From positions 1-61,472 of the IMG/VR virus record IMGVR_UViG_3300031623_000938: a stretch of DNA of 61,472 nucleotides; one strand, written 5' to 3'. The position numbers and the translations under genes were made by a program. The notes beneath the pieces are model-generated. The model did no database searches and was not told the origin of the DNA. It worked only from the letters and a program-made list of their open reading frames with translations. Below are positions 1,665-61,472 of the stretch, piece by piece. Source of the DNA: a virus. Taxonomy: Duplodnaviria > Caudoviricetes. Within the stretch, counting starts at the first letter, position 1, and the number at the start of each line of letters is the position of its first letter.

Positions 1665-2020
1665 TTTTTTCCATCGAGCAAATTTCCTGTTCCGAACACG
1701 GCTTTGAGCATGGCAGCTTCATCCTTTGATTTAGCCTCATCCATTTCGGGCTCCTTGTCTGCTGGTTCGACTACGTTGAGCACAATCCACGACGCAAGTT
1801 CTATGGCTTTTTCTTTATTTAGAATAACTTGGTCATCATAGACATTGCCTTTCGTCAGCACCATCCAGCACAGTTTTAGTCGTATCCACCAAGATAATTT
1901 GATGGGGTTGATGCCCTCACGCCAGTAGCTAAAGTACAGTTCTTCCTCATCGTCAAACTTAGTGACGAGCATACCTTCGCTATGACAATCGCATTTTATG
2001 AATTTTTCTCTGTCAGCCAT
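1661..2020 (-). CDS. hypothetical protein (N-terminal CDCH motif)
   Basis: 119-aa ORF coupled to neighbours; FIKCDCHSE start. Confidence 0.7.
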   Translation of the reverse strand: MADREKFIKCDCHSEGMLVTKFDDEEELYFSYWREGINPIKLSWWIRLKLCWMVLTKGNVYDDQVILNKEKAIELASWIVLNVVEPADKEPEMDEAKSKDEAAMLKAVFGTGNLLDGKK

Positions 2021-2181
2021 TATCCTCTCCTTCGTCCCACGTTTTCCTCGTCTTCTATATCTTCGTGTTGAGTGGTATGTTCCAAAATGGAACTAACCTC
2101 TTTCATCTTCCACGCTATATACCAAACACCCGCAGCAATTATATAAAAGGGTATTTGCAGTAATAAAAGGTATTCAATCAT
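2020..2181 (-). CDS. small single-TM protein, 53 aa (not in ORF track)
   Basis: MIEYLLLLQIPFYIIAAGVWYIAWKMKEVSS...RRRG*; fills the gap, and its TAA overlaps the next ATG (TAATG). Confidence 0.7.
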   Translation of the reverse strand: MIEYLLLLQIPFYIIAAGVWYIAWKMKEVSSILEHTTQHEDIEDEENVGRRRG

Positions 2182-2188
2182 TTCTTGT

Positions 2189-2773
2189 TCAAAAATCCTT
2201 TAGCTTAGTTGGTAACTCATTTATCTCTAGAATGTTTGCTGAGTTATCAGTCTTGAATCTAAACGCGGTTGTTTCCTCCCCGCTGAATGTCAGCACTCTT
2301 TCTTTAACAACTATTTCTTTAAAAGGCTTAATTCTGATTAGCTTAATCGTGGCTTTCACTGGAGCCTTGTCCGCTTTGGAATAAACATGGACATTAACAA
2401 TGTTTTCCCCCGCTGTGACGCCACGAAACGATACTATCTCTTCGTTTTTATTTACGACTTTCCCCTTATTCTCTGGAAGAGTATTGTTCCTAGACTTACC
2501 GAGTGCATCGTGGTCTAAGCTGATCAAGCTCCCATCTCCACCTTCCCTTCTGTTGAAGCTAATCAAGTGGCCAGAAGCGGACTTAACATATATATCCAAG
2601 TCATCCTCACTTTCTCCGTCCCAAGTTAAGATTACTTGAAAAATTGTGTTCGGTGGCCTCATCTTTTTTTTGTCGTCCTCTGTCTTCAGGAGAAACAGAA
2701 TAGCCACGAGCATCAACAAGCAGCAGAACAGGGTGTCGATGAATGGTTTGAATGTGAAATATTTTCTTTTCAT
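2189..2773 (-). CDS. ExbD/TolR/MotB-like single-TM protein with YfaP/DUF2135-like soluble domain
   Basis: KPFIDTLFCCLLMLVAILFLL matches the ExbD TM motif PFID with its membrane Asp; ILTWDG..DDLDIYV motif follows; ATG at 2773 is coupled to the upstream micro-ORF. Confidence 0.7.
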   Translation of the reverse strand: MKRKYFTFKPFIDTLFCCLLMLVAILFLLKTEDDKKKMRPPNTIFQVILTWDGESEDDLDIYVKSASGHLISFNRREGGDGSLISLDHDALGKSRNNTLPENKGKVVNKNEEIVSFRGVTAGENIVNVHVYSKADKAPVKATIKLIRIKPFKEIVVKERVLTFSGEETTAFRFKTDNSANILEINELPTKLKDF

Positions 2774-2874
2774 CTCAGAAAATGGTCTATCAGTTTCATT
2801 ATTATAGCTCCGACAAATCCAAAAATTATAACTCCTCCGCAAAGACCCATGAAAATGATCACGAAATCCCTCAT
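2770..2874 (-). CDS. 34-aa transmembrane micropeptide (not in ORF track)
   Basis: MRDFVIIFMGLCGGVIIFGFVGAIIMKLIDHFLR*; ATGA overlaps at both ends. Confidence 0.7.
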   Translation of the reverse strand: MRDFVIIFMGLCGGVIIFGFVGAIIMKLIDHFLR

Positions 2875-3362
2875 TCTTCTGTGTCTAACTCGAATTTAAG
2901 AAGCATGAGTTGCAACTGGAGAAGGAGGCTAAATACAATACCGCAGATCGTAGTATAGAACGCCGTGTTCAAGCCATGCTTCAGCCCAGCTACTACTTGA
3001 CTTACTGACACCGAATCAGAAAGATTTCCTTTAGTAGCAACACAAAGGCCAATGATTGTCCCAAGAAGACCAAGGGAAAAGAAATGTTCCGCGCAAAACC
3101 ATCCGACTTCTGCGCGTTTACTTAACTCTCTCCTGTCTTTCGTTTTGACTGCTACGTCTGCTTTGTAAGCTATGTGACCTATAAAACAAGTAACCAAAAA
3201 ATATAAGGATATAATTGCTATCGTTAAATGGGAGACATCATTTTTTACCATAGTAGAGAGTGCTCCTTTTTGTTCAGCAAAAAAAATCGCTGTTAACAAA
3301 ATGGCATTAAGGAGAAACCACTTAACGAAGGTAGTCATCTTGGATTTTTTCAAAAATTTCAT
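2871..3362 (-). CDS. MotA/TolQ/ExbB proton channel family protein
   Basis: SLGLLGTIIGL and GLNTAFYTTICG helices match ExbB/TolQ TM motifs; four hydrophobic segments. Confidence 0.85.
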   Translation of the reverse strand: MKFLKKSKMTTFVKWFLLNAILLTAIFFAEQKGALSTMVKNDVSHLTIAIISLYFLVTCFIGHIAYKADVAVKTKDRRELSKRAEVGWFCAEHFFSLGLLGTIIGLCVATKGNLSDSVSVSQVVAGLKHGLNTAFYTTICGIVFSLLLQLQLMLLKFELDTEE

Positions 3363-3868
3363 TATAGGTTCAATAATCTGTTTAAGTCTTCATGATTTTT
3401 AACTTCTGGATACTTATTTTGAAGGTCGATCAAAATTATCTTTTGCGAGTGAGTCAGAGGCTCATACCGACCTCCTCCTTCTTTCCTCCAATTATAGGAT
3501 CGCCTGATATTCTCACTTGCCGTACACCAGCATAAATTATCTAAATCATTGTTAAGTTTATTGGAGTCGATGTGATCTACGATATCATATATTTCAGGCT
3601 GCGGATTTTTAATGAAGGCACGAGCCATAACCCTATGTAAGCTTAACGAGTACCCACCCGCACGAATTGCGATGTATTGATTTCTTAAGAAGGGGGTTAG
3701 ATTTTTTCCTCTTGTCATGCCATACACACTCCCGTCCCTGTACACCTTGTACTGTTTAGGTTTTATCCTTGGATCAACTTTCGACAAGTCTACCCACTTT
3801 TTTTTATTCTGAGAACAGAAGGCCATAGGAGTTAGCTGTATATTAGTTATATACACTTTTTTCTCCAT
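3362..3868 (-). CDS. HNH homing endonuclease (HNH_3 type)
   Basis: LHRVMARAFI..VDHIDSNKLNNDLDNLCWCTASEN. Confidence 0.9.
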   Translation of the reverse strand: MEKKVYITNIQLTPMAFCSQNKKKWVDLSKVDPRIKPKQYKVYRDGSVYGMTRGKNLTPFLRNQYIAIRAGGYSLSLHRVMARAFIKNPQPEIYDIVDHIDSNKLNNDLDNLCWCTASENIRRSYNWRKEGGGRYEPLTHSQKIILIDLQNKYPEVKNHEDLNRLLNL

Positions 3869-3893: not shown

Positions 3894-3970
3894 TGGTACT
3901 CCCGCTGGGACTCGAACCCAGAACCCTCTGTTTAGAAGACAGATGCTCTATCCAATTGAGCTACGAGAGC
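3894..3970 (-). tRNA. tRNA-Arg (anticodon TCT)
   Basis: GCTCTCGTAGCTCAATTGGATAGAGCATCTGT-CTTCTAA-ACAGAGGGTTCTGGGTTCGAGTCCCAGCGGGAGTACCA; cloverleaf, TTCGA T-loop, encoded CCA. Confidence 0.97.
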
Positions 3971-3972
3971 TA

Positions 3973-4422
3973 CTACTTCCCTTGGAAAAAGTTGTCGTAT
4001 TTGATGAAAACCTCTTCTCCTCTGGATATGTCAAACATGGCGTAAACTGAACCGTTAGCATCGAATCGGGCGTTTGGATTGTCAGAATGATTCATGTAAG
4101 CACTGATGTTTAAGGTATTTAGTGTTCGATACGGGATATACACAAAAGAGTCCTGACTCTTCGAGAAGAAATCGAGAACCATTGATTTGACCTCCTCATC
4201 TGCCACATCGAAAACTTTTTCAGGTACTTTAAAGAATTTGTCGTATCGAGAAGTCTCTGGGAAGAGATTAGTATTGGAGGCAACATCCCTAACGGCAAAA
4301 ACCCCCACGCCGTGAACTTCCGAAGGTTTTATTCTGCAATAAGTGCATTCTATTATTGCTTGTGCTATTCGAGCCTCTTCCTCGTGCTCTTCTTTAGAGT
4401 TGGCAGATTTGATTTTCTCCAT
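3973..4422 (-). CDS. SET-domain protein (putative lysine methyltransferase)
   Basis: SEVHGVGVFA, YMNHSDNPNA, ISRGEEVFIKY motifs. Confidence 0.9.
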   Translation of the reverse strand: MEKIKSANSKEEHEEEARIAQAIIECTYCRIKPSEVHGVGVFAVRDVASNTNLFPETSRYDKFFKVPEKVFDVADEEVKSMVLDFFSKSQDSFVYIPYRTLNTLNISAYMNHSDNPNARFDANGSVYAMFDISRGEEVFIKYDNFFQGK

Positions 4423-49798: not shown

Positions 49799-50203
49799 GG
49801 GGGCGTACTGGTTTCGATTTGGGACCTTACGCAAGATTGCAAGCAGAGGATGATGGTTGGCCTCTTTAAAAAACTATCAAGGCAATTCAACTGCCAATAA
49901 CAATGTTGATATGGCTCCTTCACTTGACGAAGCTGATGCGATTCTCGCTAAGTTTGGTTGGGCTGAAGAAGCTGCTGTAGCTGCGTAAGCTACCCGTCCT
50001 ACTCTGGATGCTCGTTAAGGAGCTAGGGCGTCGATAACGAGCAAAAAAACTAGGAAGGGTGAGGTGTCTAGTATAAATAAAGTGCCTCCAACCTCGTGTG
50101 TAGTTGTCAGTGATGAAGCACGAAAATTAACACTGACTATGCTTGTAGTATATCTTAGCAGATGGTTTTAAAGACAGGGGTTCGATTCCCCTCGCCTCCA
50201 CCA
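49799..50203 (+). ncRNA. ssrA: tmRNA
   Basis: 5' GGGGGCG pairs with 3' CGCCTCC-ACCA including G3:U wobble; T-arm GGGGTTCGATTCCCC; tag ORF 49893-49988 ends in AVAA*. Confidence 0.95.
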
Positions 50204-50225: not shown

Positions 50226-53200
50226 TTAATCCTTCCAACTAGTCCAGAAACTATTGTTTCTGTTGGCTTGTTCTTCGGTAAATTCGTCGAACCTTGAGTC
50301 TCTCTTACCCTTTCTTATTCCAGAAAGTTTTATGACTATTTCCTCTGGTGCATTTCCTTCTATTTTGACAAAGAGTTGACTGTTCTCAACTTTCATACCG
50401 CAGACACAAGGCTCAGAAGGAACATAACTTATGGGCTTCACCGACCCCTCTTCGCAAACATGTATATACTCTGGGTCTATTCCAACCCACATTTCCTTAT
50501 TCCCCATAGGGTTAATGACGAGAATGTCATCGAACCGAGTCTCAGGCATTTCCACACAAGTCAGTCCAACATAAACGCCTTCTTCTCTTCCTTTTACGAT
50601 TGCATATTTTGCACCCGTGGGACCCGTGGGTCCTTGAGGACCACCGGGACCGGGAGAGCCAGCAGGACCTGTGGGGCCATAACCGCCGGGGCCTGTAGGA
50701 CCAGCGGGACCTGTGGGTCCACCAATTGCACTAGGGTCACCTGTGGGACCAGTGGGGCCTGTGGGGCCATAACCGCCGGGGCCTGTAGGACCTGTAGGAC
50801 CAGTAGGACCACCGCCACCATCGGGACCAGCAGCACCACTTGGACCAGCCTCGCCAGAGGGACCAGCCTCGCCAGAGGGACCAGCCTCGCCAGAGGGACC
50901 AGCCTCGCCAGAAGGACCGCTGCCTTCCTCTTTCCACTCAACTCTTGTCCCGTTTAGCGTCAGAACACTTGAACTAGTACCTGATTCTACTTGGCCTATA
51001 TCTAATGTCGTTCCAATTGATGCCCCACTTATTACAGAGAATAGTCCACCGTCGTAATCAATCGAGGCTACGCTATGCCAACTACTACCCCCCTTATATC
51101 TAGAAATTAAGAAATTGTTAGATACGCTACCTCCGGGGACTGTCATACCTACGTTGAAAGCTTTCGAAGGAGAAACTCCGGGGCTACCATCTTTCCACAT
51201 TTGGTAACCAGCGTTACCAATTTCCAAATACGAGTTATACGAAAGTGGTCGATTTATAACGCTGTCCCAAACGAAGTTGCTACTCGCTGCAAATGAACCA
51301 GCATTGTTGTATTGATATTGGTAGCTGCTACCAGCAGGGGTTCCACCGCCACCACCGCCTGTAGGTCCTGTCGGACCAGCACCACCAGCGGGTCCAGTAG
51401 GACCAACGGGTCCTCCAGAAGGTCCCGTAGGACCAGCGGGGCCAGCGGAACCAGCGGAACCTGTAGGTCCAGCAGCACCAGCACCAGTAGGCCCTGTGGG
51501 GCCAGCGGAGCCAGCACCACCAGCGGGACCTGTCGGACCAGCGGGACCACCTCCGGGTCCTCCGGGTCCAGTGGGACCAGCACTACCAGCAGGACCTGTT
51601 GGACCAGCGGAACCAGCACCAGTAGGACCTGTCGGACCAGCGGAACCAGCACCCGTAGGACCTGTCGGACCAGCACCACCAGCACCACCAGCGGGTCCAG
51701 TAGGACCAGCGGGTCTTCCAGAAGGTCCCGTAGGACCAGCGGGGCCAGTAGGCCCAGTGGAGCCTCCACCACCAGCGTCTCCATACCTAGCAAAAGAAAC
51801 TACAACTCTGTCTCCACTAGTGAAAACTCCAGTGGTTTGATGTGGGAAATATGGACCACCATACTTTCCTGTTTGGTCGCACGAAGATACGAAATCAATT
51901 GGAACAGTGAAGTATTCAGTTAATCCATAATCTCCACTGTTAGATACATCCCCAGTAATGTTGTATGTTGCGAATCGACTAGAATCAAGCTCGTTAAATA
52001 TCCTCAACGAACCTTTTACGGAGTTGGAAGAATCATCTAAACCAGATATCCAAGGACTGTTATTGGTTTGATACAGTCCACTATCATGTATCCACATATA
52101 GTCGGCTTCATACAAACCCGTAACCGACTTCCAAGTTTTCTTACTGCCAAAATATATGTAACCACTAGTTGGGTCTATTAAGTCAAAGGCTGTTCCTGTT
52201 CTATCGTAAAAACTATAGATAACGCTGTTTCCACCGAATCCCCCTTTCGGACCAGTGGGACCACCAGCAGGACCTGTTGGGCCAGCAGTACCAGCGGAAC
52301 CTGTGGGGCCAGCAGCACCAGCACCAGTTGGACCTGTGGGACCAGTAGCACCAGCACCTCCTGCCGAACCAGTAGGACCAGCGGGGCCAGCAGGACCACC
52401 ACCGGGACCTGTTGGTCCCGGTCCTCCCCCCGGACCCGGATTACCAGTAGGACCTGTTGGTCCCGGTCCTCCCCCCGGACCCGGATTACCAGTAGGACCA
52501 GCAGAACCATCAGAACCAGCAGGACCAGCGGAACCTGTGGGACCAGCAGGACCTCCAGATGGTCCTGTCGGACCAGCAGAACCAGCGGGTCCTGCGGGAC
52601 CAGCGGAACCTCCCGGTCCAGTAGGACCAGCGGGACCACCATCGGGACCAGTAGGACCAGAAGCACCACCGGGACCAGTAGGCCCAATAACACCTCCACC
52701 AGAACCAACTATTTCGTGGACTGTAATTTGAGCATCAAGTAAATCAGTCTTATCTGGACCGGATTGTGTTCCTGCCCAGTTATATTTAAGATAATAATTT
52801 GCTGCTGAAACTGTGTTTGGAGAATCTAAATATGTCCAAGCCAGACTTGCGTAAGTATCTTCACCAGTGTCATCGTCTTGATATATTGACTTAGTTAAAC
52901 CAAGTTGAGTGGCATCCCTGTATAGCCGAGCGAAACATTGGCCGGGAGTGTATGCGTAATTATCATAACTAACTTTGACGTTTAAGTTACCATTGACTAA
53001 AACTTTGTTCCCTGTGTTAACGGGGGTAATCGCCTGTTGGACTGCCACCGTGTAGGTACTTGTATTATTACCTGATGTAGCACTAAGCGAACTCCCAAGA
53101 ACTTGCCCAACTTGTCCGCCACCTTTTGGACCAGTGGGACCAGTGGGGCCAACCGGACCACCACTAGGTCCAGCAGGGCCAGTACCGCCTATTGAACCAG

Positions 53201-54818
53201 TAGGCCCAGTGGGACCTAGTTGCCCTGATATACCTGAAATACCAATAGGCCCAGTGGGACCTATTGGTCCTATGGCCCCAGTGGCTCCTGTTGGGCCACC
53301 AGACGGTCCTCTTGGACCAGTAGGGCCAGTAACACCACCATCGCCAGCCCTATCAAAAGATATAACTACGTTATCTGCATTAGAAAACGAACTATTGCTT
53401 ACGACATGATCTACAAGAAGTGTCCTGTAGGTAGAAGCTGAAGTGCTCTCTCCCGTGACATTGAAGATCGCAAAAGTCGCTGCATTCGAATGCTTAACTA
53501 CTTTTACTGCTCCTAGATTTGAGGGGTTTGTGCTATCGTCAAAAGTGTCTAGCCAATTATCAACAAGGGTTCCGTCTGAGTTTCTATCGTCTACGAAGAT
53601 TTTTGATACGTCACCTATCGTTGCGCTATCGTAAGCCAATTTCCCATTTCCGGGGTCAGCGTCAGAAATTGTAGTATTGAAAGCGTACCTTAGAGCGTTT
53701 GCTCCTATTGGACCAGTGGCTCCTGTCGGACCAGTAGGACCCGTATTGCCTGTATTGCCTGTCGGTCCAGTGGGACCAGCTATCGTACTTGCTGCGCCCG
53801 TGGGTCCGGTAGGACCACTATCACCTTGATTGCCAATAGAAACAAAAGTTACCACTATTGGATCATCGTTACTAAAGACACTTGTTACCGACATCGCAGA
53901 TGATGCAACATGTATGACTTGTAGTCTTATATAACCTGAGACATCCGTGTTTGCGCCGTTTACATTAAGCGTGATGAACTTTTCAGGTTCGTCTTTTTTG
54001 AAAAATCTTAAATGCCCTCTAACATTACCAAGGCCAGAACCAGAGTCGTCGAAAGAATTAATCCAATCCTCCATACTAACGCCACTGGAGTTTTCAACAT
54101 CTATGAAGACTTTTGATATATTTGCGGACTGATGGTTGTCGAATCTAAGATAGCCTGATCCGGGGTCGGAATCCGTTTGTACGTTACTGAACGAATATTG
54201 TTGACTGTTACCGCCGAACCCGCCAACTGCGCCTGAAGCAACGAAGGTTACGAAAATTCCATCGGTATCCGAAAACACGTTAGAGATAGTATCGCTATCA
54301 CCATAATTAATATTTGTGACCGGAATCTTGAAGTAAGAGCCAACATAAGTTACCGCACCAGCCACCTTAAACGAACAGAACTTATCCGAGTTAGCTTGTT
54401 TATATATTTTCAGAGTGCCCCTGAAATCATAATTTGTATAGTTGTCATCGAAGTGATTAATCCAACTGTACATATCGTTGGAAGCTGTATTCCTGTCTAT
54501 GTAAATGAAGGTAGTCCCCGTGAAAGTCGTGCTATTCCACCTCAATTTTGCAAGACCGGGATCAGCGTCAGAAGTGCTAGACAGGTCTGCTATGTATGAT
54601 TGGGTATCACCTCCAGAGCCAGCAAGACCAGCAGGGCCTGTAGGTCCAGCACCTCCAGTACCTCCAGTGCCTCCAACGGGACCAGTGCCCCCAACAGGGC
54701 CAGTATTTCCACCGGGGCCTTGAGGGCCAGTTGGTCCGGGCGGACCTTGGGTTCCAAATTGACCCCCTTCTAGGGTTTCAACTCCTGTAGTTAATATTTG
54801 TGCTCTTCTTCTAGGCAT
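50226..54818 (-). CDS. collagen-like tail fibre / virion fibre protein
   Basis: Extensive GPT/GPA triplets interleaved with four copies of a ~135-aa D(A/S)DPG globular domain. Confidence 0.88.
50842..50913. repeat. 18-bp tandem repeat x4 (encodes GPSGEA)
   Basis: GGACCAGCCTCGCCAGAG repeated four times (last copy ends in A). Confidence 0.9.
52405..52494. repeat. 45-bp perfect tandem duplication
   Basis: GGACCTGTTGGTCCCGGTCCTCCCCCCGGACCCGGATTACCAGTA x2. Confidence 0.9.
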
Positions 54819-54821
54819 AGC

Positions 54822-57800
54822 TTATTCCACCTCTTCTTGTAACGTGAATCCTTTCCAATAGAATTTACCATGTAGTGTTCCCGCTGTTGCTCCGCTTGTT
54901 ATTGATGTTATTATATTGTTTACACCCACTGTGTCATTAGGCGATCCCAGCCTGATTCTCTCATGGGCTAGAATTGAGTTGTCTATAGCTGGGACAATAT
55001 ACTGATTGCTTATATTAGTTAGGTCTCCACTTATCCCCATTTGGAACCTTGGTCCATGAAGGACGGGGCTTACCGAGCTATCTGTTATAATCAATCCAAA
55101 TTCATCGCAGAAGAACCTTTGCCCTTGGTCAATATGTATCGTGTGAGTAGCCGTTTGCGTGAGGTCTAGTTCTTTCGATGTAAATATCGTCGCTGCCCCA
55201 ATGAACTGATGATAGTGGTGGTCAGTATTTGATGTTTCTGGTGCTCCAAAGAACTCAGGAACAATCAACTGGGCTCCAGTGTTAGTCGGATTGAATGGAA
55301 CCATATTGGAATCATCTCCGATGTTTACCACAATCTTCCGGTTAACTGCTGTGCCAATCCTTTTAACGATACTTCCAGCAGTCGTGGGCTTGGTAGTCGT
55401 CATTAACCCATGCGTTGTATCACTTAAGTAAATTGGTTTGCCATAGTTAAACCCTGTGACCGAACCCCAAGGTGTTTCTCCATGAGTGACGTACTTAAAT
55501 CCTCCCCCACTGATTTCTACAACCAATCCAACAACGTTCTCAGTCCCAGTGTTGGAGTTAGCTATGGCTTTCATGAAACCAGTTGTTCCATTCTCGCCCG
55601 TATTAAATTGAACGATATCGCCTTGGACTAAAATGTGACTTGGGTCATCAACATCAATGACGGTGTTGGCATGTAAGTCGCCCGTCACAAAATTGAAGGT
55701 AATTGGGTTAGTGCCGTGGACCTGAGTAAGACCGCCGTAAATATTTATGTCGTTGCCAATATTCGTATCAATAATCGATACTGTGCTGTCGGTGTAGTGA
55801 CCAATGTGGGTATTATTGGTGGTTATGTTGGAACCATTCGTGATGGTAACTTTTCCGGTGACGTTTAGTTGGTCCCCGGTGAACAACAGGCTGTTAATCG
55901 TACCGTTAATGAACCCAGTTGGGTTAGTTAGGGTAAGCGTAGTCTCGTTCAGTAAATAATTTATACTCTGACACCCAGAGTGAATGTTGGGAGAATAGTT
56001 TCCAGTTAGCGTAACTGTGCTGTTATCTATCGTTGTGGTAGAGGTCAGGTTTCCTGTCCACGTAAAGTCGTTATTGTAGGTTACGGTAGATGAACCGTTC
56101 GAGGTGTTACCGCCCTGATTTAGATTCGCGTATGGCCCAGAGTGGACCGTCACTTCCCCGCCAGTGATATTGGTTATAAATTGATTATTTCCTTCTAATA
56201 TCGTTGACCCGGTATTGTTGTAATTAACATCCGCTGATATATCCCCAACGGAATAAGACCCATAACCATAGTTAGTACCTACAGTGGCGGTAAACTCATT
56301 GTCGTTTTGATAAATTTCTCCAAAAGAACCAATCCTGTTAACATCGACAAACGAACCTGTATGTTTCTCAAGGTTCCTGAATTGGTAAATGTTAACGTGA
56401 CTTCCTGAATTGGTTGTAACATCTAATTTGGCCCCGCTATTATTTTCTGGGTTGTAGTAGACGTTGATCTGATCATCGTGATTTTGGATATAGGTGTTAC
56501 CTTCTTCCCTGTTTGTCACAGATATTGTGTGGCCCGAAATATAAGAAGTACCGGATATCGTGACATCACTATCGTAGATAAGTACGTCTGTTTCTTCTCC
56601 CCCGTGAACCCCCAGAAGTACGCCACCTCCAGTTATTCCAATGTTGACGCCACTGACAGTGTTTGTGCCCCCAGTAATACTTACGTGGCCAATGTTACCA
56701 GTTATGGTAATGTCGCTATCGTTTATACGAACATCAGAGTCGAATACTGTAACGCCCGAAGCGTTATTGAAAGTGTTTATCCCGCCCGATGCGATTATGT
56801 ACCCAGAAGCACTCTTGAAATCGATGTTGCCAGTGCTATGGTTTAGGTAAATATTGTTACTGGAAGAATTACCAGTTACATAGAGGCTACCGTTGTAAAT
56901 CGTGTTCGCTAGATTATTGTAGTTCGTTACTACGGAATCAGTAATACTTGAGACACTGAACGATTGATCAATGAAAGCCTCTGAGCCACTCAGGTATAAG
57001 GTATTATTTCCTCCCGTTATGTAAACTCCCGTCGCGTGGTCGTGGAAGTGAACTGTACTGTGAGCAACATTGATTGTGTCTCTAGCGTCCCAGAAGTTGG
57101 CTGTTCCCGTGATGTGGAAACCGCAATCTTTACCCGTGATGTTTACAACTGAGTTGTCGTACCCCGAAATGTTAACAGTGAAGAATTGTCCCGTTATTTG
57201 AATTCCGGTATTACCAGAGAGGTGAAATACGCCACCGTATGCATTCAGGTCGTCTATGACAGAATTCGTTATGTAGTTGTTCGATCCAGAGATGTATACG
57301 TATTCCCCAGTTGCGTAGTTAGTGCCACCATCAATGGTGATGTTGTGGCCAGTGACATAATTTCGGCTATCCTTTAAGACTAACGAATCAATGTTGCCAA
57401 TGATTGTAGCCGTACCGCCGTTTACCGTATTATTGCCACCAGTGATGGAAATGCTTTGTCCGGTTGCTACATAGAAGGTGTTAGTACCCCCACTGATTCT
57501 AATCGCTTCCCAGTTTGTTCCGGTTGCGTTGAGGTTGCCACTAATGAAGTTTGTTATTATCGGCGTTTGGCCAGTAAGGTACAAGTTAGTTGCCTGACTC
57601 CCCGATGCGTTGTTGAAAGCTGCGTTTGTTACGTATGATGCGTATATGTCTAATTCGTCGCCAGAAATATTATTGATCCCACCAGAAAGTATTATCGACT
57701 CAATTATTCCCGTAGAATTTATGTTAAATGTAGTACCGGAAATTATGTTAATCGACTGTCCGGTAAATGTTCCGGTCAGAATTATGTTTGATCCGTTGTC

Positions 57801-60800
57801 CGCGTATACGTCGGCATTTACATCCATGTGGAAACCGTCCGCATGGATATTGTTTTCCCCTCCTGACACGTATAACGTTGGTTGTGTTCCAGAAAGTGTT
57901 ACGTTCGAGTCCGTGATCAGAATATCCGAATCGTCTACATAAACTTGAGTTTGGTTTGTATAGGAATTCTTTTCTTGTCTTCCTACGATATGGGTCGTAC
58001 CTCCGGTTATTCCTACCGTGGTGTTATCGAAACGGCCCGATACTTGAGAACCTGTTATATTGATATTACCGCCTGTTATTCCGAAACTGTAATTTACCCC
58101 AGTTAACATTGGGCCATTGTTAATCGTGGAAAGATAACCACCAGCGGAGGAGGATTGACTTTGTTGGTTATAATAGGTGGCGTGGAGGTTAATATCCCCG
58201 TGGTTAGTTATTGATACATCTACAGGAGAGTTGCTGTGACTGTTATTTGGGGAGGCGACACTAGCGTTCGAGGCATATCCTGCGGAACTCGTAGTCGCGC
58301 CCTGCGAATAGGTCTGCGACATATCTATAGTCGCGGTTCCCGTAAACTGTTCTATAGTTAATGCTTGCGAGTTATTGTCGTATGAACCTTTAGTGTTTGA
58401 TGCGCTTGCAGAACTCTGATAGTTAGCAGCGTAAGCAGAAACACTTCCTACTGTCTGATCATTGGTGAAACTGTAATTTAGTGTTCCCGTGAAATAATCT
58501 ATGTCGAACTGCCCACTTCCGCTCGCGTAGATATTCCCTATCGTGGTGTAGTCGCTTACTCCGCTGCTGGTGATATTTATAACGCCCGTTTCAAAGTACA
58601 AGTTTGAAATAGTCGAGTCATCCACATTGAAGTTATGTATATCAGAGTGGGAGCTATTAATAACAGTGTGCCCTGATCCTGTTATTATTTGGGAGGTTAT
58701 ATCCAGATCAGAGGTGAGATTTATTGTTCCTATTGATCCGTGGTTTGCATTTAGGGTCTGTATATATCCCGTATACTGGTTAAGTGTAGTTATTGTCCCC
58801 GTGAAATTCTCGAATATGCCCGTGTCAATGCTAAGAGTGTTGAAGTCACCAGATATAGCGATTTTCTCTGATGCGTTTGTTATGTCTACGTCTGATCCGT
58901 AAATATTGTACTCGCCTGATATAGAGTAGAAGTCTACATCCGTCGCTCCAGTAATGTTTACTACTCCACCGGAATTATTGTGGACGATCATCTGATCAAT
59001 ATCGCCAGAGAAGTTAACCGTACTATTTACGGGCTGGACGTTATTGATTGTTCCGCTGTATGCGTAGATGTTGGCTACCGACCCGTCGCCAGTGACGTAG
59101 TTTGTGCCGTCCGTTATCGTGGCAGAACCAGTTATGTACGCAACGGAGTCTGACACGTAGTTGGTACTGTTCGTGAGTATCAGGCTTTCTGTGGCGTCAT
59201 CAGAAATGGTAACTTTGATGTCATTAATGCTCTCGCTGACAGTTACAATCCCTCCGGTTATATAGCTTGTTCCAGAGTATATGCTTACCGTGGAACCAGT
59301 GATAAAGTTTTGGCCAGAGCTACCGGAGTAGTAGTGGAGCGTCATTGTGGCTCCGGTTATGTAAGCATTATCAACTCTATCTGCACTTACGAAAGTTGAT
59401 CCCGCTGCGTTAAGGGTATTTACTCCTTGGGTTATGTTAAATTCACCCGTAGCAAAGGGACCATCTCCGGTGATGATGTTCTGGATAGTAATTCCAGAGT
59501 AAATGTTTATGCCCGATCCTGTGATTCCAAGGTGACCGCCGTCAGCAACGTAGTTTCCGTCAAAAGTGGTTGTTGCTGATATTGGGCTACTAACTGAATT
59601 TGTCAGCGTATTTACTCCGTATACAGCATTAACGTTGCCGTTTGCGGAGTGATGGATTTCACCGCTTAAGATTGCACCCGCTTCAATTACTGGACCGTCA
59701 ATGTTCCACACTGAATTAGCGTCTTGCGTAGTTATCTCATCTACGAATTGGGAAGTAGACGTTATAGTCGAATTCGAAATACTCGTAACGGCTGGGTACT
59801 CATGACTTGCTGCGTAAGCTTGTCCCGTAAAGCTCACGTTTCCTCCTGTAATATTCAGATTCTGAATGCCAAGTTGCGCGTAGGAACTATTGGCCCCTGT
59901 AATATATTGGGTGATATGAATATCCGAATTACCAGAATCAGTAACTGTGTTGTATATGTTCGTGGTTGGGTCAGTGTTGTGAGTACCACTGAAATGGAAA
60001 TCTATTCGTGTCGAGTCGTTTCCTGTCGCATAGATGTTAGTGTCAACCCCAGAGTGAATGTGAACATTGCCACTCTCGTAGATATGGAACGTATTTAATC
60101 CGCCTGTCACGGAGTTGATTGTGTCAACTTCAACTGTGTTTGTTCCGTTTAAGAGATTGGTGATACCACCGCTGACCGAAACGACGTTAGTGCCGTCATT
60201 TATTGTTACATCATGACCAGTAATCGTGCTCGTGCCCCCCGACACATGTATGATATGCCCAGTGATGAATGCAGTGGAATCATGTATCTCATTGTGGAGG
60301 CCAGAGTATATAGTAACCGTGCAGCCAGTTAAGTTATTAAGGCCACCCGTTATTGTTACAGGGTTGGCTCCAGATATATGGGTAGTGCCACTCGTTATAT
60401 CTATGTTCGAATTGTAAGCTACTAAGTTCACACCCGCCCCAGTAGCATCGATATCTACGAAGTCACACTCCTCTATTGTGATTTGAGAAGATGGGTTTGT
60501 TATGTTAATTAAGTCGCCGTCAGTGATGACAACCTCACCGCTATAGATATTTACTTCCTCGTTACCACTGATGATGTTGTAACCGTCATGTATCGTAACT
60601 TCGCTTCCTGATACGTGGGTGGTGTTCCCGCTGAGTATCGTTACAAAGCCAGTTACCCCAACGAATCCGGTATTATTTATTACTGTCGCTCCCTCGGCGG
60701 TAGAGGTGACGTAAATGACCCCACTATTACCTATGCTGGCGGTACTTTCGCTTAAGTTCGCTACCCCACCTTCTAATACTTGGAAATAATCTTCACTATC

Positions 60801-61472
60801 GTATATCCAAACATTTGTTCCGGTAAATTGGTTGAACCCCCCACTGATCGTAACGCCTTGCGGATTATAGATATCTATATCCTTTGCGTCGTGAATGTGA
60901 TTTATGGAGTTGCCAGATATATTTATGAGCCCAGAGACGCCTGAGAAAGATGTAGTACCTCCGCTAATATCAATGTGGAAATAGTTCCAATCTTCCCTAA
61001 ATACTCCAGTTGGAAAACCTGAAGTTAACTGGATGATGGTTGAGTCTGGATAAACAGTAGTTTGGCTGTAGTCCCAAATCGTGTGATTTGATCCGCTGAT
61101 TATCAAGGTTTGACCACTTCCCTCTAAGAACGTTCCGCTCTTACCAATCGTATTAAATACTATTCCCGTTGGGTATCCCGAAACGAGGTCAATAGTGATG
61201 GTCTTACTCTTGTCTACTAAGGTAGTGCTGTAATCATGGATCGTTGTTTGCCCAGAGCCAGTAACGGTTATGTTCGAGCCAGAGACGGTAATGAACGTAC
61301 CAGTTTTATCTACGAGTACTCTGTTGTCATAGCTAACAGTGTTGTGGGTAGTATAATCATTTATCGTGACTACTCCTGAAGCTCCTGATGCTAAACCTGA
61401 AATTCCTACTACGGTATTCCCTGTGCCACTTACGTCAATGAAAGTACCGCTTCTGTCGATGTTAAACGTCTG
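54822..61472 (-). CDS. giant Thr/Ser/Gly/Asn-rich beta-solenoid-like virion protein (5' end outside window)
   Basis: Frame stays open for 122 codons upstream of 61106 to the window edge (QTFNIDRSGTFIDVSG...); ITGG/ISGG repeats; C-terminal YLSDT..G..T..KP..G motif. Confidence 0.85.
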   Translation of the reverse strand, partial: QTFNIDRSGTFIDVSGTGNTVVGISGLASGASGVVTINDYTTHNTVSYDNRVLVDKTGTFITVSGSNITVTGSGQTTIHDYSTTLVDKSKTITIDLVSGYPTGIVFNTIGKSGTFLEGSGQTLIISGSNHTIWDYSQTTVYPDSTIIQLTSGFPTGVFREDWNYFHIDISGGTTSFSGVSGLINISGNSINHIHDAKDIDIYNPQGVTISGGFNQFTGTNVWIYDSEDYFQVLEGGVANLSESTASIGNSGVIYVTSTAEGATVINNTGFVGVTGFVTILSGNTTHVSGSEVTIHDGYNIISGNEEVNIYSGEVVITDGDLINITNPSSQITIEECDFVDIDATGAGVNLVAYNSNIDITSGTTHISGANPVTITGGLNNLTGCTVTIYSGLHNEIHDSTAFITGHIIHVSGGTSTITGHDVTINDGTNVVSVSGGITNLLNGTNTVEVDTINSVTGGLNTFHIYESGNVHIHSGVDTNIYATGNDSTRIDFHFSGTHNTDPTTNIYNTVTDSGNSDIHITQYITGANSSYAQLGIQNLNITGGNVSFTGQAYAASHEYPAVTSISNSTITSTSQFVDEITTQDANSVWNIDGPVIEAGAILSGEIHHSANGNVNAVYGVNTLTNSVSSPISATTTFDGNYVADGGHLGITGSGINIYSGITIQNIITGDGPFATGEFNITQGVNTLNAAGSTFVSADRVDNAYITGATMTLHYYSGSSGQNFITGSTVSIYSGTSYITGGIVTVSESINDIKVTISDDATESLILTNSTNYVSDSVAYITGSATITDGTNYVTGDGSVANIYAYSGTINNVQPVNSTVNFSGDIDQMIVHNNSGGVVNITGATDVDFYSISGEYNIYGSDVDITNASEKIAISGDFNTLSIDTGIFENFTGTITTLNQYTGYIQTLNANHGSIGTINLTSDLDITSQIITGSGHTVINSSHSDIHNFNVDDSTISNLYFETGVINITSSGVSDYTTIGNIYASGSGQFDIDYFTGTLNYSFTNDQTVGSVSAYAANYQSSASASNTKGSYDNNSQALTIEQFTGTATIDMSQTYSQGATTSSAGYASNASVASPNNSHSNSPVDVSITNHGDINLHATYYNQQSQSSSAGGYLSTINNGPMLTGVNYSFGITGGNINITGSQVSGRFDNTTVGITGGTTHIVGRQEKNSYTNQTQVYVDDSDILITDSNVTLSGTQPTLYVSGGENNIHADGFHMDVNADVYADNGSNIILTGTFTGQSINIISGTTFNINSTGIIESIILSGGINNISGDELDIYASYVTNAAFNNASGSQATNLYLTGQTPIITNFISGNLNATGTNWEAIRISGGTNTFYVATGQSISITGGNNTVNGGTATIIGNIDSLVLKDSRNYVTGHNITIDGGTNYATGEYVYISGSNNYITNSVIDDLNAYGGVFHLSGNTGIQITGQFFTVNISGYDNSVVNITGKDCGFHITGTANFWDARDTINVAHSTVHFHDHATGVYITGGNNTLYLSGSEAFIDQSFSVSSITDSVVTNYNNLANTIYNGSLYVTGNSSSNNIYLNHSTGNIDFKSASGYIIASGGINTFNNASGVTVFDSDVRINDSDITITGNIGHVSITGGTNTVSGVNIGITGGGVLLGVHGGEETDVLIYDSDVTISGTSYISGHTISVTNREEGNTYIQNHDDQINVYYNPENNSGAKLDVTTNSGSHVNIYQFRNLEKHTGSFVDVNRIGSFGEIYQNDNEFTATVGTNYGYGSYSVGDISADVNYNNTGSTILEGNNQFITNITGGEVTVHSGPYANLNQGGNTSNGSSTVTYNNDFTWTGNLTSTTTIDNSTVTLTGNYSPNIHSGCQSINYLLNETTLTLTNPTGFINGTINSLLFTGDQLNVTGKVTITNGSNITTNNTHIGHYTDSTVSIIDTNIGNDINIYGGLTQVHGTNPITFNFVTGDLHANTVIDVDDPSHILVQGDIVQFNTGENGTTGFMKAIANSNTGTENVVGLVVEISGGGFKYVTHGETPWGSVTGFNYGKPIYLSDTTHGLMTTTKPTTAGSIVKRIGTAVNRKIVVNIGDDSNMVPFNPTNTGAQLIVPEFFGAPETSNTDHHYHQFIGAATIFTSKELDLTQTATHTIHIDQGQRFFCDEFGLIITDSSVSPVLHGPRFQMGISGDLTNISNQYIVPAIDNSILAHERIRLGSPNDTVGVNNIITSITSGATAGTLHGKFYWKGFTLQEEVE

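Follow-up and report, generated by a model that had tools for sequence, protein, structure and literature searches.

A putative stripped-down MotA/ExbB-type motor pair encoded by a large marine tailed phage

Organization of the locus

The genes analysed in this study lie in a stretch of 61,472 nucleotides of viral DNA (Duplodnaviria; Caudoviricetes), covering positions 1 to 61,472 of the IMG/VR virus record IMGVR_UViG_3300031623_000938; this whole stretch is referred to as the window. Four open reading frames (ORFs) on its minus strand were followed, namely a membrane protein (A), a 34-residue peptide with a single transmembrane (TM) segment (p34), a single-TM protein (B) and a 53-residue membrane peptide (p53). 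A preliminary description of this DNA had taken the four as one unit, a phage-encoded ion motor of the ExbB/ExbD type with two micropeptide subunits. The positions and common strand of all four ORFs were confirmed from the window sequence, as were the ATGA couplings of A with p34 and of p34 with B. The grouping itself was found to be broken in the relatives, which comprised 37 related marine phage loci from 36 distinct contigs. The reading favoured here, with a probability of about 70%, is that A and B form the core of an undescribed, pared-down ion-driven complex of the MotA/ExbB - MotB/ExbD/TolR kind in a large marine tailed phage. In this reading p34 and p53 are no part of the motor and are independent genes for small membrane proteins in a stretch prone to insertions. 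The features are summarized in Table 1.

Table 1. Features of the window and of related loci (positions without a locus prefix are those of the window)
Feature	Location	Strand	Description
A	2871-3362	minus	163 residues, MotA/ExbB/TolQ-family membrane protein
p34	2770-2874	minus	34 residues, one TM segment; inserted between A and B with an ATGA overlap on either side
B	2189-2773 (ATG at 2773)	minus	194 residues, one TM helix with Asp13 and, in the model, a TerD-like beta-sandwich
p53	2020-2181	minus	53-residue small membrane ORF, N-terminal TM segment and acidic tail
N119	1661-2020	minus	119-residue ORF 3' of p53, overlapping it by 1 nucleotide
HNH endonuclease gene	3362-3868	minus	Pfam HNH_3 6.4e-9; PHROG 59 8.3e-25
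tRNA-Arg(TCT)	3894-3970	minus	Between the HNH gene and the SET-domain gene
SET-domain gene	3973-4422	minus	149 residues; Pfam SET 1.2e-9
tmRNA gene	49799-50203	plus	Found by ARAGORN; long tag peptide
Tail-fibre-like ORF	50226-54818	minus	1530 residues, repeated tail-fibre matches; adjoins the following ORF
Long ORF	54822-61472	minus	More than 2200 residues, running off the window end; no PHROG match
C, examples	L020:3093-3695; L029:3357-3929; L001:3097-3537; G001-G003 loci L076-L078		Two-TM protein of related loci
A-B junction inserts	L006, L017, L032		DUF6693-like TM ORFs
A-B junction insert	L024		Another TM ORF
A-B junction insert	L018		29-residue ORF
A-B junction insert	L026:2247-2474		75-residue ferredoxin-like ORF
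A-B junction insert	L031		170-residue methyltransferase-like ORF
A-B junction insert	L038		371-residue ORF
Ferredoxin-like ORF after B	L028:3091-3318; L040:3093-3323		Recurrence of the 75-residue ORF of L026
Lipoprotein-like ORFs	L008:3100-3345; L013:3091-3348; L017:4160-4495; L019:4533-4727; L041:3530-3727; L005:4312-4620		Small ORFs near the module in marine relatives

The source DNA is that of a large tailed phage, and the window gave PHROG matches to ribonucleotide reductase, DnaB-like helicase, DNA polymerase, UvsX-like recombinase and tail fibre; its DNA is present in marine and seawater metagenome runs. The genes of the region are tightly packed. The stop codon of A and the start of p34 share the ATGA at 2871-2874, the stop codon of p34 and the start of B share that at 2770-2773, and p53 starts 7 nucleotides past the stop of B. 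On the upstream side the stop of the HNH endonuclease gene and the ATG of A overlap by 1 nucleotide (TAATG, 3360-3364). The relatives of A begin 8 codons later, at the position equivalent to M9, and the true start of A is therefore uncertain. A TTG-extended form of B with 217 residues, starting at 2842, was dropped because all relatives start at the ATG equivalent to that at 2773. Scanning of the region for promoters and terminators gave results at chance level, and a DNA similarity search against known phages matched only the tRNA in this region.

Subunit A is a MotA/ExbB-family protein

The membership of A in the MotA/ExbB family was established directly from profile searches. Against Pfam PF01618 (MotA_ExbB) the protein scored 26.8 bits, above the cut-off of 22.9, and in PADLOC it matched the ZorA2 profile at 6.8e-9, thereby upholding the assignment of this ORF as an ExbB/MotA-like gene. 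The homologues of A numbered 831, with PF01618 present in almost all among the 120 matches listed; a tblastn search of A against the phage collection returned no match. When a profile built from 32 relatives of A was searched against the PDB, the four best matches, all of them weak, were subunits of MotA/ZorA pentamers: the ZorA chain 8vvn as the best, and the MotA chains 8ucs, 6ysf and 8gqy.

The hydropathy profile of A revealed four hydrophobic segments (residues 11-29, 46-64, 90-112 and 139-159). The cytoplasmic loop is only about 25 residues long, the C-terminal tail is almost absent, and the charge pattern fits an orientation with both termini inside the cell. Two motifs, GLLGT (containing T102) and NTAFYTT (T133, T137 and T138), were invariant in the 32 A sequences and align with the equivalent helices of MotA and ZorA. 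For TolQ and ExbB, PMC12215075 describes a polar ring that is made up of two conserved threonines and lies next to the essential Asp of TolR or ExbD.

Subunit B carries a near-invariant membrane Asp

The partner B has a short basic N-terminus followed by one hydrophobic helix at residues 11-29 (9-30 in the structural model), which carries the PFID motif with Asp13. The charges flanking the helix, +4 and +2, fit an N-in orientation. The preliminary description of this ORF as a single-TM protein with a PFID motif and a membrane Asp was therefore accurate, and the conservation of the Asp was borne out as well. It is found in all 58 of the diverse full-length members that were aligned, where the other invariant residues are W51, D58, D60, L86, D89, G92 and E112. 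In a larger set made up of the window B and 126 representatives of at least 180 residues, Asp13 is retained in 121 of the 127 sequences; five of the exceptions are truncated and start inside the helix, and one has Asn.

The B family is large, with 817 matches in a word-indexed search and 996 clusters at 50% identity (E<=1e-3), 452 of which reach E<=1e-10. Links to named families are faint. The ExbD/TolR family (Pfam PF02472) was weakly matched by 7 of the 58 members in a one-by-one scan (E<=0.1, best 0.0051) and MotB_plug by a single member, and no OmpA family was found for the window B or among the families listed for the 58 members (25 of 27). The membrane part of B would thus work like that of an ExbD/TolR/MotB-type subunit, and the protein stands outside those families by sequence and domain criteria. 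In the phylogenetic tree of B, the marine phages form a clade on a long branch with the window sequence as its earliest branch; this clade falls outside the sampled clade of Pelagibacteraceae type, and the placement points to no host or donor.

The head of B is TerD-like

The structure of B was modelled with AlphaFold2 from the 58-member alignment at a predicted local distance difference test score (pLDDT) of 90.0, replacing a single-sequence fold that had reached a pLDDT of 62. In the model, the helix at 9-30 is joined through some 12 linker residues to a beta-sandwich (45-185) that is predicted to face the periplasm. Comparison of the model with 48,161 chains using VIA-align placed TerD structures at the top (Z 10.3 and 9.2), the next match having a Z of 5.9. 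Superposition on TerD (PDB 2qz7 and 2kxt) covered 133 residues within B 42-194 with a root-mean-square deviation of 3.6-3.9 and 14% identity. The Foldseek results are in accordance with this, as four of the five matches at E<=0.001 were TerD-type (E 1.4e-4 to 6.2e-4); against viral structures the same model gave mixed uncharacterised matches, a few of them named TerD-like. The TerD Pfam family was absent from the 25 listed of the 27 families found for the 58 members. A search of PDB sequences with the B-family profile gave faint matches to the motif 'W..S..D.DL.V.DP.G' in protease C-terminal jelly rolls.

As judged from the model, the head of B has a TerD-like fold, unlike that of ExbD or OmpA. 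The preliminary description had called the soluble domain YfaP/DUF2135-like rather than ExbD- or OmpA-like. The second half of that statement holds. The YfaP/DUF2135 label pointed in the right direction but was weak and is not established: DUF2135 (Pfam PF09906) had no match to the window B and was found in 1 of the 58 members (E 0.0021), PPC was found in 3 of the 58, both signals being faint, and one Atlas cluster was automatically named YfaP/DUF2135.

Linkage of A and B, and a conserved third gene

The linkage of A with B, and in relatives with a third gene C, was established directly from gene order. B is preceded by a homologue of A in every one of the 37 marine phage loci, and the two genes overlap or are at most 17 nucleotides apart in 28 of the 36 contigs. 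The pairing of an ExbB/MotA-like protein with a single-TM, Asp-bearing partner as a phage-borne unit, put forward earlier from the window alone, is thus a conserved arrangement. Matches to B were also obtained in 23 Rhizobium phage records at 26-30% identity. In the four of these records that were inspected, where B identity is 27-30%, a gene of 113-148 residues was overlap-coupled to B each time; three such counterparts of A scored 26.8, 27.3 and 22.6 bits against PF01618, two of them above the cut-off. A conserved two-TM protein of 144-154 residues, C, then follows B in these phages.

The arrangement extends to bacterial genomes. A motif scan recovered 34 loci, mostly from alphaproteobacterial metagenome-assembled genomes (MAGs), of which 33 matched the B profile, 31 had A adjacent and 30 had C adjacent; most of the missing cases are at the end of a locus. 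The operon is tight and has the order A-B-C, C again being a two-TM protein, and neither B nor C of these operons carries a Pfam or NCBIfam name. In two loci (L056 and L048), which come from a Pelagibacteraceae MAG and a 3.5-Mb Geminicoccaceae contig, the neighbours are ordinary cellular genes (ABC transporter, aspartate dehydrogenase, SufB, trehalose-phosphate synthase and LysR), and A-B-C is therefore also a cellular operon. Among the marine phages, 13 of the 36 contigs carry C no more than 3 kb from B, and in all three further records searched it lies 3.3-5.5 kb downstream of B. Marine C and Rhizobium-phage C were aligned by hhalign with a probability of 79.8% (E 1.5e-5, 35 columns), and besides its two TM helices C shows the motifs LG(W/Y)P and 'PRL..Y.R.LHE'. 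C is a conserved third gene that completes the module elsewhere and had been overlooked in the preliminary description.

The distribution of the genes bears on two other explanations of the pair. In the first, A and B would be a lysis or permeabilising pair, holin/antiholin-like or acting as a regulated leak, with a resemblance to MotA/ExbB in two helices only. Some holins are small proteins with four TM segments, as A is, the profile match of A spans only about 55 residues, and the module sits amid small membrane ORFs. On the other side, the PF01618 cut-off is passed by the window A and by two of three distant phage relatives, the third missing it narrowly (22.6 against 22.9), the family is found in nearly all among the 120 homologues of A listed, and the Asp of the partner is near-invariant. 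A lysis cassette is unlikely because the same operon occurs in bacterial chromosomes beside housekeeping genes, and this explanation is held to have little chance of being right.

In the second, A and B would be a Zorya-type system carried by the phage for defence or exclusion, sensing an incoming phage at the envelope and blocking it. Phages are known to carry exclusion genes, and ZorA provides both the best defence-library matches of A, the NCBIfam ZorA_4 profile at 6.2e-6 joining that of PADLOC, and its best PDB match. The ZorA profile matches cover the shared TM core alone, however, and are far below the curated cut-offs (25.4 bits against 500). At 163 residues A lacks the long tail of ZorA, no ZorB match was found for B in PADLOC, and the scanned neighbours, which include HNH and SET domains, showed no effector of the ZorC, ZorD or ZorE type. 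The bacterial operon, moreover, consists of A-B-C alone amid housekeeping genes. A defence role of this kind is accordingly regarded as improbable.

The small membrane ORFs p34 and p53

The peptide p34 contains one hydrophobic segment with an Asp (D3) at the start of the helix. When the 97-nucleotide interior of the ORF was shuffled 20,000 times, the p34 frame remained open in 7.3% of the shuffles, and the shuffles that were both open and as hydrophobic as p34 made up 0.03%; four of the six frames are open across this stretch. The Atlas score for p34, 0.80, is at chance level. No relative of p34 was found in the 37 related loci (best E 0.52), and degenerate DNA patterns found none in viral_contigs or metagenome_contigs. 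Its cluster at 90% identity has a single member, called as a gene on 16 contigs with an identical sequence in every case, and in four marine DNA runs p34 is likewise covered by identical contigs only, which leaves no variation for judging selection. Two contigs skip p34 altogether, joining 2764 to 2929 and 2772 to 2926, and more distant contigs diverge at 2754, near the start of B. The ORF looks like a real coding insert.

Cargo between A and B is present in 8 of the 36 related contigs and is of unrelated kinds (Table 1). The 75-residue ferredoxin-like ORF found at this junction in one contig recurs after B in two others and looks like a small mobile gene. With this background p34 is read as a lineage-specific small gene inserted at a hot spot between A and B.

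The second peptide, p53, also has one hydrophobic segment; its N-terminal TM part is conserved and its acidic tail is variable, and forms of 28, 36 and 37 residues retain the TM part alone. Relatives were found in 5 of the 37 loci (L008, L009, L017, L018 and L019) at 0.45 to 2 kb from B. The sole fully syntenic relative is L018, where p53 lies directly upstream of a homologue of N119, as in the window, and p53, N119 and the following genes keep the window order at more than 1 kb from B. Homologues of N119 occur in 16 of the 37 loci at variable distances from B. The ORF p53 is a genuine small gene without a fixed link to A-B. The 90% cluster of p53 (2023-2181, minus strand) has as its representative a 469-residue 'amidase' with no visible similarity to p53, which is probably a clustering artefact. 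Small lipoprotein-like ORFs were also noted near the module in six marine relatives (Table 1); they have in common the motif 'GKAFP..WGKPPEIQTKDY.PLP.GYGHGSSTL', which is duplicated in L017.

The proposal that p34 and p53 are dedicated accessory subunits, giving a four-part viral motor, was weighed against these data. The peptide p34 is ATGA-coupled on both sides and so strongly hydrophobic that it is rarely equalled in shuffles, its D3 at the helix start is loosely B-like, and a small TM ORF occurs in the insert of four of the eight contigs with an A-B insertion (L006, L017, L024 and L032). Against the proposal, p34 lacks relatives in the 37 loci, in both collection scans and in its own cluster; in 28 of the 36 related contigs no gene separates A from B, and the junction also holds non-membrane cargo (L026, L031, L038 and L018). 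In the Rhizobium-phage and bacterial operons A and B overlap directly. The relatives of p53, finally, lie away from B, and in L018 p53 stands beside other genes. Conservation of the micro-ORFs and synteny of the four genes thus failed to appear, with p34 in none of the 37 loci and relatives of p53 in five. The evidence supports neither peptide as an accessory motor subunit; the four-part motor as a conserved design is largely refuted, and the proposal is considered very improbable.

A looser variant would keep A-B(-C) as a working, undescribed ion-driven motor acting on the host envelope or the proton-motive force (PMF), and would take the variable TM ORFs of the junction, p34 with its own Asp at the helix start among them, as interchangeable modulators sitting in or beside the pore and tuning or gating the motor. 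This variant is also thought highly unlikely.

Proposed motor and comparison with known systems

In the favoured reading, with A and B as the core of a stripped-down motor, copies of A would assemble into a ring within the inner membrane of the host, and its pore would be lined by the last two A helices with the invariant threonines of GLLGT and NTAFYTT. The B helices would be seated in this pore, where protonation and deprotonation of Asp13 would let ions flow and so move A relative to B. The TerD-like head would stand just above the membrane on the periplasmic side and may act as an anchor or as the output, the invariant acidic residues of the head being a possible Ca2+ site. In the relatives C may complete the module as TonB and TolA complete their motors. 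The assembly of A with B, its stoichiometry, topology and ion flow, and a role in infection are inferred from analogy, and an envelope or PMF-linked function of the pair is a guess. Superinfection exclusion, control of the PMF and the countering of Zorya, the roles put forward earlier, would be further conceivable functions, as would upkeep of the envelope while infection proceeds.

ExbB-ExbD(-TonB) and TolQ-TolR(-TolA) are proton-driven inner-membrane motors and form 5:2 complexes (PMC12215075). The pair resembles them in the assignment of A to PF01618, with a Gly-rich 'GLxGT' helix and a Thr-rich last helix, in the single-TM B with an Asp of the essential type near the cytoplasmic end of the helix, in the overlap coupling of the A and B genes and, as regards TonB and TolA, in the position of a third membrane-anchored protein, C, encoded just downstream in relatives. 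The pair departs from these motors in the four TM segments of A, which has hardly any cytoplasmic domain, and in the head of B, where a linker of some 12 residues carries a TerD-like beta-sandwich instead of the alpha/beta domain of ExbD and TolR. C, for its part, differs from TonB and TolA in having two TM helices and neither a TonB nor a TolA signature. A-B is linked neither to a TonB-dependent receptor nor to a Pal/TolB partner, and the module, unlike Ton/Tol, is carried by phages.

The flagellar stators MotA-MotB and PomA-PomB share with the pair a four-TM A subunit with N-in/C-in charges, the last two helices of which match MotA chains, and a TM Asp in the B subunit as in MotB and PomB. 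The differences lie in the parts that face outwards. A has neither the large cytoplasmic TM2-TM3 loop nor the C-terminal tail for the rotor, and B has no clear plug helix (MotB_plug in 1 of the 58 members) and no OmpA-like peptidoglycan-binding domain (0 of the 58 among the families listed). The likeness to ZorA-ZorB is confined to ZorA as the best defence-library and PDB profile match of A; the matches fall below the cut-offs, the long tail is missing, B has no ZorB match, and ZorC, ZorD and ZorE were not seen. With the TerD family of Ca2+-binding beta-sandwich proteins the pair shares the fold of the B head. TerD proteins are soluble and cytoplasmic, whereas the head of B, at 14% identity to them, is membrane-anchored and predicted to be periplasmic.

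Several observations weigh against the motor reading. The match of A is confined to the last two helices of the PF01618 profile (positions 58-111 of 127), its PDB profile E-values are weak (0.2-0.53), and the window A has Leu in place of the Pro of 'FSLPLQ' found in most relatives. The window B had no match in Pfam (E<=1), PHROGs, PADLOC or NCBIfam, ExbD and MotB included, and the B-family profile search of the PDB returned no ExbD, TolR or MotB chain. No C was found in the window, about 2.2 kb of which lies downstream of B; the C gene of this phage may be located beyond the left window edge. The tallies from the MAGs are not a random sample because the 34 loci were picked via one motif. A is without cytoplasmic output domains and B without a recognisable peptidoglycan-binding domain, so that the motor has no evident load, and A-B is known here from DNA alone. 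A complex prediction with four copies of A and two of B(1-50), a composition other than the native 5:2, scored 0.00 against a mark of 0.32 without controls, and it is evidence neither way.

The literature was searched for comparable systems, supplementary family tables not being covered. Within this scope no paper was found that describes a MotA/ExbB pair carried by a phage together with a TerD-like partner, none on DUF2135 and none on the A-B-C trio. The available text of PMC12505986 has no mention of a phage-encoded motor, TerD or DUF2135, and in that of PMC5852040 ExbB, TolQ and MotA appear in a cited reference only.

Genomic surroundings

The HNH endonuclease gene and N119 are context and lie outside the A-B module. 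Beyond the HNH gene follow a tRNA-Arg(TCT) and a SET-domain gene. Farther along the window a tmRNA gene and two very long adjoining ORFs were noted, the shorter of them tail-fibre-like (Table 1).

Biological significance

Ion-driven 5:2 motors power flagella, Ton/Tol transport, gliding and Zorya defence. The module described here is a variant of this known class of machine for which no published description was found. For the window itself the finding amounts to a correction, as the A-B pair is real and the micropeptides are its neighbours rather than its parts. The A-B version is widespread, occurring in marine phages, in phages of Rhizobium and on bacterial chromosomes, and its presence in many phages suggests a role in infection. 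A minimal motor of this kind, little more than a pore core under a periplasmic head of another type, would be a simple model for the conversion of ion flow into work.

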